Of a DNA stretch of 60,000 nucleotides, positions 18,246 through 19,769 are shown in pieces. The notes beneath the pieces are model-generated. The model ran no database searches, had not been told where the DNA came from, and saw nothing but the letters and a program-made list of their open reading frames with translations. The first letter of the stretch is position 1; each line of letters starts with the position of its first letter. The translations under genes were made by a program, and so were the position numbers. The stretch covers positions 19,346,001-19,406,000 of the forward strand of contig CM119371.1 in NCBI GenBank assembly GCA_051294905.1, given 5' to 3'. Origin of the DNA: Botryllus schlosseri. Its lineage: Eukaryota.

Positions 18246-19769
18246 TGTACTCGGAAGACGTCTACGATCTCTGCGAATGGCTTAAAGACCCGTCTGAAGA
18301 ACAACCAGGGACGTCGTCCGGGCAAAAGGACAGCGACCGATCAAGTATGAAATATTCGGCAGAGGGTGGCAGTAGAACAGAACCAAGCAAGTCAAAATCT
18401 TCACCAAAAGTCACTGACCACAACTCTTCGGATGTCCCCAGTTACAAAAATGATATCGACGAGCCTGCTTCTCCGTCTTGCGACACTGACGACGGCGCTG
18501 ACCCATCAGAGGCACACCAGCGCACCGAATCTTGGTGCGAAGTGTCTGAGATCACCACGACGGAGAGCTACGAGAACTTCAAAAAGTACACGGAAGGCTT
18601 CGGGAAACAGCAAGCGAAAAAGTCACGTTTCAAATTTAAGCGGACAAAAAAAGACAAAGTCAGTCTTTACAACGGTGACGGTGAGCGCGACGCGCCACAA
18701 TTAAACGGCAGAGTAATTATGCCTCATTTTCGAGTTGAAAAACCGGGTACGTCCCGCGTAAGTCCTACGCTTGTGTCATCAGATACGAGTGTAGCGATCG
18801 GGGTAGACACGACAGACAGCGCTAAAAGCGCTGTGTACGTAAAATCAGAATTTCCGTCACCGATACTGTACAGAAACTCGACAATAGGGGATGCCGACGA
18901 TACCCCAAGTCCACCCCCACCTATATCTGCGTTGTCGTTTTTTCCGTGTGACGAAAATCGTAAAATCGATGACAAAGACTCTTTTCTGTCCTCGTTCATC
19001 GAGCATAGCGTCGCCGATCAAAATACTGATTCAGAATTGAAACCGGTTGGGCATGACTATGACTCAGTATGTTCTGGTGAATTTCGATCAAATTTGGGCT
19101 CAGATCCCGGCGGTACAGACTTGGAACGCTCGCGGGACCACAGTTTTGAACAAAAACTTCTGCCTTGTGATGAAAATCGAAAAATTAATGACAAAGACTC
19201 CTTTCTATCTCCGAACATCGAGACTATCGCTTCAAATCAAAATGCCGATTTGGGGTTGAAATCAGTCAACTGTGACAATGACTCAGCAAAGTTGAGTGAG
19301 TTTCGATCGAATTTCGGCTCGGATCACGATGGTACGCATCTAGAGCATTGTCGGGACGGTAGTTTCAAACTTAACTTCTCTCGGGTTACAAAGCTCGAAG
19401 ATGAAATCGACGGTAGAAACAAAACTCCTAAGCATGGCTCGTTGAAATTCGAGACCAGACCCGGCACCGTCCTGCATTCGGCCAGGCTTTTGCGGCGGTC
19501 CTCTTCCACGCCTGGCGTTCGAGAACGCTCGGCTACACTCGGCGGTGACTCGACGCTGAAAAGAAACCGCGGCGTACGTAACAAGTCGCTGCCCAGCCGG
19601 GAATCGTCTCGGCACAAAGCCGTGCTTATTTTGATCCCTGTGCGGTTGGGGGAGAGTGCGCTCAACCCTATCTACGCGCCTTGTGTCGAGGCTATGCTGT
19701 CGTTGGAGTCTTCGGTCGGGATTATCGGAGGCAGGCCGAAACATTCACTGTACTTTGTCGGCTGTCAAG
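18246..19769 (+). CDS. ATG4: ATG4C/D exon 7 (1524 bp, includes ~440-aa insertion)
   Basis: Starts VYSEDVYDLC, ends KAVLILIPVRLGESALNPIY...VGIIGGRPKHSLYFVGCQ; open throughout; caacAG / GTGAGC. Confidence 0.9.

Follow-up and report, generated by a model that had tools for sequence, protein, structure and literature searches.

A 447-residue loop of predicted disorder inside the protease domain of an ascidian ATG4C/D-type protein

The closest described systems are vertebrate ATG4D and ATG4C (family C54, PF03416), which share with the protein described here the catalytic Cys, the Asp-His pair, the equivalent of Trp142, the regulatory loop and a C-terminal LIR-like end. In mammals, ATG4D is the main delipidating enzyme according to the available text of PMC8408152. 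How ATG4 is prevented from delipidating growing autophagosomes, yet becomes active in delipidation at other sites, was described as unresolved in the accessible sections of a 2017 review (PMC5799747). In those sections, and in the accessible part of PMC9025542, a large internal loop is not where the known LIRs and most known phosphosites of ATG4 proteins are placed; they map to the tails or to the core. No paper on an expansion of this loop in ATG4 of tunicates or any other invertebrate was found in the full-text literature, where subscription papers are largely missing, and the available portions of PMC9143426, 10.1101/677617, PMC9631991, PMC6107107 and PMC3962217 do not mention the loop. Vertebrate ATG4D has 14–15 residues (Xenopus, Hemicordylus) at the site where the protein encoded in the window, the whole stretch of 60,000 nucleotides analysed here, has 447.

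The gene model comprises nine GT-AG exons on the + strand (10348–23274), which together encode one open ATG4C/D protein of 952 residues. Exon 1 (10348..10522) provides the start codon, an N-terminal tail and EAWNNIRY, and its N-terminus matches that of the Styela clava protein LOC120334826 (hereafter P0002). Exon 2 (11539..11643) encodes the PIWILG strand, exon 3 (13353..13448) encodes DFASRPRFTYRK, and exon 4 (14970..15059) carries the catalytic Cys in GWGCMLRS (14993–15016), aligned to ATG4B via P0002. Exon 5 (15942..16070) is followed by exon 6 (17034..17174), which runs from WYGPNT, containing the equivalent of ATG4B Trp142, to VAVDCT. Exon 7 (18246..19769; 1524 nt) encodes VYSEDVYDLC, the insert and C-terminal core strands, and includes GGRPKHS of the regulatory loop (19727–19747). 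The catalytic Asp and His lie in LDPHYCQ (21018–21038) of exon 8 (21001..21104), and exon 9 (22780..23274) supplies the end of the core, the C-terminal tail, a terminal LIR-like QFELL and the stop codon.

The catalytic Cys, Asp and His, the Trp142 equivalent and the regulatory loop are all present when the protein is aligned through P0002 to ATG4B, using the definitions in the accessible text of PMC5799747 and PMC9025542. The catalytic Cys precedes the insert and the Asp-His pair follows it, so that the catalytic domain is interrupted by the insert. The final 57 residues encoded by exon 7 score 66.6 bits against Pfam Peptidase_C54 (PF03416; curated cut-off 25), and P0002 scores 310 bits against the same family in two stretches. 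The N-terminal DEVD caspase site reported for mammalian ATG4C/D in the available text of PMC9025542 is absent from the 952-residue model; because that text describes the site for mammals only, its absence does not exclude pro-orthology.

The insert comprises 447 residues (256–702; 18275..19615, + strand), lies wholly inside exon 7 and is flanked by VYSEDVYDLC (246–255) and by KAVLILIPVRLG (from 703; KAVLILIP). A first-pass annotation of this DNA had described an S/D/E/K-rich insertion of ~440 residues in the protease domain, encoded in one open exon of a ~952-residue protein. This description is borne out, with S+D+E+K at 39.6% and every motif that it quoted found in the insert. Its start at 18275 stands, and its end at 19612 falls one codon short of 19615. 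The coding frame of the insert contains no stops, compared with 8–36 in each of the other five frames, and a run of 447 open codons would arise by chance with a probability of 1.6e-10 at this base composition. GC3 is 0.49 in the insert and 0.65–0.71 in the core.

The AlphaFold2 model of P0002 (42-row alignment) places 248 residues, from the core on both sides of the loop, at pLDDT 90 or more, while residues 285–752 and 756–802 have pLDDT under 50 and no secondary structure. This orthologue model has the papain-like fold with a short-fingers domain. A Foldseek search with it returned nine significant matches, all to human ATG4A or ATG4B (TM 0.85–0.90 over the target), and structures of human ATG4B and ATG4A (2CY7, 2D1I, 2Z0D, 2ZZP and 2P82) have the same fold around the insertion. 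No ATG4C/D structure was found among the five structure sequences matched, all of which are ATG4A or ATG4B. Folding of window exon 7 on a two-row alignment gave a mean pLDDT of 33, with a single helix predicted in the insert; as confidence is low for the core fragment too, this run is weak evidence. The insert is thus predicted to be intrinsically disordered, as the first-pass annotation had proposed, the loop being unstructured and of low confidence in the P0002 model and, more weakly, in that of window exon 7.

By alignment, the insertion point corresponds to residues ~184–221 of ATG4B (renumbered by three for the extra residues of the construct), a loop of ~36 residues compared with 447 in the window. 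The homologous ATG4B loop includes Cys189, an inhibitory S-nitrosylation site in the available text of PMC9025542. It ends ~10 residues before Leu232, which is listed as an LC3-contacting residue in the accessible part of PMC5799747.

Four of the 24 listed sequencing runs were compared over 15900–23400, with a best word share of 0.32. Record 5 of run X1, whose type is a guess (RNA), is a contig without introns (4138 nt, depth 13.9), in which exon 6 is joined to the whole of exon 7 over 1523 nt with no gaps. Window positions 17032–17173 map to 3252–3393 of this contig, 18245–19767 to 1729–3251 and 22778–23400 to 1003–1624, and the 104 letters between the exon 7 and exon 9 segments equal the length of exon 8. 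With exon 7 spliced in full to exon 6, the insert is not a constitutive exitron, a possibility for which the first-pass annotation had suggested an RNA-seq check and which is ruled out here by one contig from one run. Raw reads of X19 reach a depth of 0.6–2 over five bins spanning 18661–19915 and 0 over 18159–18660, a nearly uninformative depth. Those of X21 cover one exon-7 bin at 0.57 and those of X23 none, which is too shallow for minor forms.

Between the window and the same X1 contig, 89 of 1523 exon-7 positions differ (5.8%), without indels, whereas exon 6 is identical over 142 positions and exon 9 with the 3′ UTR shows eight differences in 623 (1.3%; Fisher P 4e-9). Exon 7 is therefore a local divergence hotspot between the window and X1 alleles, as sampled by one contig. 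The two exon-7 differences inspected, of the 89, comprise one synonymous and one nonsynonymous change. Because the exon 9 stretch includes the disordered tail and the UTR, relaxed constraint alone is no obvious explanation of the exon-7 excess. The 89 differences are nevertheless compatible with relaxed constraint on spacers, and were counted against the reading of the loop as selected. An old balanced or introgressed haplotype is a possible source of the divergence, again on the basis of one contig.

Within the insert, two adjacent copies of a 73-codon segment form a tandem duplication (18938..19156 and 19157..19375, + strand) that was absent from the first-pass annotation. The copies are 68.5% identical in nucleotides and 57.5% in amino acids. 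Their gapless alignment gives a dN/dS of 0.22 (bootstrap 0.09–0.44), with differences of 19/17/33 by codon position and a dS of 1.28, which is near saturation. A relative was found in P0014, a 556-residue ORF (E 1.6e-58) that resembles exon 7 read from genomic DNA and has a loop of ~478 residues with a single copy of the repeat. The two loops are identical in 133 of 391 aligned columns (34%), with large indels. Amid this divergence, four identity runs of at least six residues (0.37 expected, P 0.00025) and nine common 6-mers (0.024 expected) were observed.

The islands common to the insert and P0014 all lie on the + strand. ESWCEV (18527..18544), a LIR-like core, is identical in P0014. ESYE.FKKY reads ESYENFKKY in the window and ESYEDFKKY in P0014, and is followed by a basic-aromatic patch, KKSRFKFKRTKK in the window (18563..18652 with the preceding motif) and KFSFTISKKKKK in P0014. 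ESYENFKKY is the sole predicted helix of the insert, at low confidence (AlphaFold2, two-row alignment), and the patch KKSRFKFKRTKK may resemble the basic-aromatic, membrane-binding domains of proteins such as MARCKS. The island SLY..D.E.D...LNGRVI.PHF.V contains LNGRVIMPHF (18701..18730; LNGRVIIPHF in P0014), and PSPILYR (18854..18874) is identical in P0014. S.LSFF..DE..K.D...FLSS includes the start of duplication copy 1, and RLLRRSSSTP (19484..19513) is identical over ten residues. Together with the dN/dS of the duplicate, these islands indicate purifying selection on the insert, focused on such short stretches, in line with the selection earlier suggested from the open frame; island conservation is measured here against one relative, P0014.

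In a HMMER search of 1.84 billion representatives, P0014 was the only match deep in the insert among the best 150 of 750 matches. No further close relative appeared among 8000 candidates scored in an alignment search, and a metagenome scan gave 76 pattern matches and no relatives. The search for longer relatives found P0002 and missed P0003, and is accordingly insensitive. P0123 (best stretch 102–202) was rejected as an unrelated repeat protein.

Loop lengths were compared across animals as D-to-P distances minus 20, with the same anchors throughout. Long loops occur at the same place in the nearest rows of the tree, namely P0002 (561 residues in a protein of 1084) and the Logan proteins P0003 (467 of 991) and P0004 (336 of 870). 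The other tunicate loops are short in Ciona (19 residues) and Clavelina (21), as are those of a Xenopus ATG4D-like protein (14), ATG4D of the lizard Hemicordylus (15), mammalian ATG4B (36) and Geodia (5). Lamprey has 44 residues, Aplysia 42 and P0007 56. Elsewhere, long loops occupy the same site in Diadema (305), Limulus (290) and Tityus (229), and the loops of several crustaceans reach ~90–150 residues (e.g. Oratosquilla 145 and Cherax 121). From 182 proteins, 61 loops with both anchors were obtained, the window included; most of the others are fragments, and five near-duplicates were excluded. The D-to-P distance is at least 100 in 24 of these loops and at least 240 in seven, with a median of 63, in a sample that is biased to long loops and gives no prevalence. 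Some apicomplexan ATG4 proteins may also be very long, a point that the literature search did not bear out.

A tree of 28 loop-free cores, in which three lepidopteran-type rows (P0170–P0172) were skipped and the backbone is open, recovered six tunicate-like rows as a clade (100/100). Within it, the four long-loop rows form one group (100/99), whose sister group pairs Ciona with Clavelina (94/88), and the window adjoins Styela and P0003 (98/85). A split with support of 100/100 separates two ATG4B rows from the other 26, among which are named ATG4D proteins; no row is a named ATG4C or ATG4A. In this tree, the gene groups with ATG4C/D, apart from ATG4B.

The simplest reading of the tree is one expansion on the stem of the stolidobranch-like clade. 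Loops of Diadema, Limulus and Tityus resemble that of the window in site and in S/D/E/K content (33–40%). They and the loop of Oratosquilla differ from it in being shorter and in lacking significant similarity to it (best E 0.3–0.5). Expansion in these four lineages was probably separate, given the short loops of Ciona and Clavelina and the lack of sequence similarity, on a tree whose backbone is open. The earlier description of the insert as lineage-specific therefore holds for its ~450-residue size, which is limited to one tunicate clade, but not for long loops as such, in view of the 229–305 residues in Diadema, Limulus and Tityus. Nor are long inserts general in invertebrates: several have them, including the ~90–150-residue forms of crustaceans, and many animals have short loops. 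These comparisons indicate that the window loop is an extreme case of recurrent expansion at one ATG4C/D site and not a unique module.

Even within the long-loop clade, the content of the loop differs. P0002, P0003 and P0004 share with the window protein a C-terminal KF..FMR.KS-like motif and the FELL end, whereas their loops are unalignable to that of the window. None of the islands was found in these proteins by BLAST, HMM or hhalign, and a profile of the window and P0014 loops did not match one of the Styela-group loops (hhalign E 0.89). P0002 and P0003 have islands of their own, such as YSEFLFKESVSC and KFSTFD. Since the islands and the loop RSxSxP motif are absent from P0002, P0003 and P0004, no motif is needed clade-wide. 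The position and size of the loop have been kept, and its content rewritten.

Eight motif patterns were tested in the insert, so that only the basic clusters approach the corrected threshold. K[KR]x[KR] clusters occur four times (0.72 expected, P 0.0075) and RxxS/T sites 12 times (6.5 expected, P 0.018); S/T-P (9 vs 6.0, P 0.11), RRxS and caspase-like sites are not enriched. Of the LIR-like motifs highlighted in the first-pass annotation, ESWCEV and HDYDSV are both present and ESWCEV is conserved, but LIR-like cores of the form [WFY]xx[LIV] are not enriched as a class: three were counted compared with 3.64 in shuffles, or two compared with 1.81 when preceded by an acidic residue. In the form used here, the xLIR pattern has no match in the insert. 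HDYDSV (19052–19069, within duplication copy 1) is not preserved in copy 2 and has no counterpart in P0014.

RSSSTP (residues 663–668), which contains the candidate phospho-Ser666, fits the consensus RSXpSXP, lies in predicted disorder and is identical in P0014. This consensus is a common 14-3-3 motif in the accessible text of PMC12360161. A second RxxSxP site, RNKSLP (19577..19594, + strand), contains the candidate phospho-Ser693 and reads RKRSVP in P0014, so both members of the pair are kept. RSxSxP occurs in four of 25 long loops (window, P0014, Tityus and P0079; 0.42 expected), a pattern that was picked after seeing the data; the window and P0014 are not independent, which leaves three independent carriers. 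RxxSxP lies near the loop end in Tityus (LLRSSSVP) and Limulus (KRLNSDP), and RSxSxP is absent from the loops of P0002, P0003 and P0004.

On balance, the insert is rather likely to be a selected, motif-bearing regulatory loop; the regulatory role is one that we infer. That the paired RxxSxP sites form specifically a 14-3-3 switch is a more tentative suggestion, which we hold to be possible but would not favour. It is proposed that the gene encodes the only ATG8 protease of ATG4C/D type in a stolidobranch-like ascidian (the clade being taken from the tree), and that a variable surface loop, originally short, in the catalytic domain of this protease has become a 447-residue disordered region, partly by local tandem duplication. 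This loop would serve as a tethered docking and control platform and take no part in catalysis. A basophilic kinase may phosphorylate Ser666 (RRSSSTP) and Ser693 (RNKSLP), which are 27 residues apart, and a 14-3-3 dimer could then bind both phospho sites beside the ATG8-contacting strand and so restrain the enzyme. Because the RxxSxP sites lie 10–40 residues before the strand leading to the Leu232 equivalent, such binding would deny the enzyme access to membranes or to ATG8. Tethering of the enzyme to ATG8-decorated membranes for delipidation would be aided by the N-terminal islands (ESWCEV, the short helix and the basic-aromatic patch), while the spacers would drift freely and the motif set would be rewritten between ascidian sub-lineages. 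A scheme of membrane tethering and restraint fits the delipidating role of ATG4D in mammals.

The principal rival, which we regard as unlikely but as the strongest of the alternatives, is that the loop is tolerated ballast. A permissive site would have grown by duplication and drift, and selection would have kept the loop open, soluble and disordered with no job, the islands reflecting recent common ancestry with P0014. The unalignable loops of the window and Styela groups, the range of 336–561 residues within one clade, the separate long loops in other phyla, the low GC3 of the insert and the 5.8% divergence from the X1 allele are all consistent with drift. Such drift does not readily account for exact islands of 6–10 residues amid 34% identity and large indels, clustered beyond shuffles, for the dN/dS of 0.22 in the duplicate or for the islands that P0002 and P0003 retain of their own. 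The islands could instead mark a hidden small domain, with residues ~340–495 folding alone or on a partner. They follow one another in order at short distances, contain many aromatic and aliphatic residues and fall in one 215-column BLAST block (E 6e-26). The low mean pLDDT and single helix in AlphaFold2 (a two-sequence alignment, hence weak), the indels of 10–16 residues by which the spacers between the islands differ and the lack of any Pfam match in the insert below E 0.1 argue against a fold, and we consider it highly improbable.

Splicing offers another means of control, in which an exitron or alternative acceptor would yield both the long form and an ordinary short ATG4C/D, their ratio setting activity. 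Use of a weak in-frame pair (donor 18345, acceptor 19619) would excise 1275 nt and so reduce the loop to an ordinary size, and the depth of raw reads is too low to weigh against a minor form. The donor, however, scores 4.1 compared with at least 7.7 for the eight real donors of the gene, and the AAG acceptor has seven pyrimidines out of 12, compared with at least eight in real acceptors. Among good internal sites, scored against the gene's eight introns, the sole in-frame pair removes 102 nt. The only full transcript contig (X1) keeps exon 7, and no joint inside exon 7 was found among the joints listed (15 of 55). P0002 and the Logan proteins P0003 and P0004 are full-length long forms. In Limulus (records P0069, P0102, P0163 and P0164), the three named isoforms X1–X3 all retain the 290-residue loop; a 605-residue record of the same gene (P0102) lacks it, together with the preceding helix, and probably represents an earlier gene model with a splicing error. 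A minor short isoform is thus unlikely, and a splice-regulated module is judged improbable, if slightly less so than the hidden domain. Least credible of all is an origin of the insert by exonisation of a transposable element with in-frame read-through, to which we give almost no weight. Repeats crowd the introns, and some of them have inverted arms. Several are abundant in the RNA runs, piling up to thousands; exon 7, by contrast, has a flat depth of 13.9 in one contig. Within the 60-kb window the insert matches only its own duplicate and two chance words of 14–16 nt, and no inverted arms flank it.

Beyond the selected regulatory loop proposed for this gene, a broader and distinctly speculative extension, to which we assign a low probability, is that the loop after the helix DVYDLC is an unrecognised regulatory port that has been used repeatedly in animal ATG4C/D. 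Separate expansions would have taken place in ascidians, chelicerates and other groups, several of which would have converged on a phospho-14-3-3 switch near the ATG8-contacting strand. The high divergence between alleles in the ascidian loop exon would then reflect balancing or diversifying selection, for example by pathogens attacking ATG8 lipidation. Long disordered inserts with short motifs are ordinary in protein evolution, and the motifs here are not common to the whole ascidian clade. A natural ATG4C/D with a large internal motif loop would nonetheless provide a test case for control from inside the catalytic domain. The site tolerates hundreds of residues and would be useful for tagging. 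The long forms of Styela, Diadema and Limulus are filed as 'uncharacterized', which annotators should bear in mind.

Elsewhere in the window, Lys/Ser-rich ORFs at 1682–3894 (+ strand) resemble exons of one gene, which we take to be NKAPD1-like; 3391–3891 has a weak Pfam NKAP match below the cut-off and 1682–2074 has none. The introns of the ATG4C/D gene hold tandem repeats (145 nt ×2.2 and 87 nt ×2) and MITE-like elements with inverted arms (11793–12111, 14195–14370, 19967–20410 and 21209–21507). Only four ORFs of at least 120 residues, none obviously coding, occur at 23300–60000. In exon 3, the usual DFxSRxWxTYR reads DFASRPRFTYRK, with Arg in place of a near-invariant Trp; Styela has SRPWFTYRK. 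In the tail encoded by exon 9 (23140–23210), a lysine run, KKKKK, precedes the basic, hydrophobic stretch SKFTKFNPLSKFMRNKS. This stretch resembles KLNKLIPDPSKFYPKFMRQ.SSSP, which is conserved in P0002, P0003 and P0004, and is possibly a second clade-specific motif.
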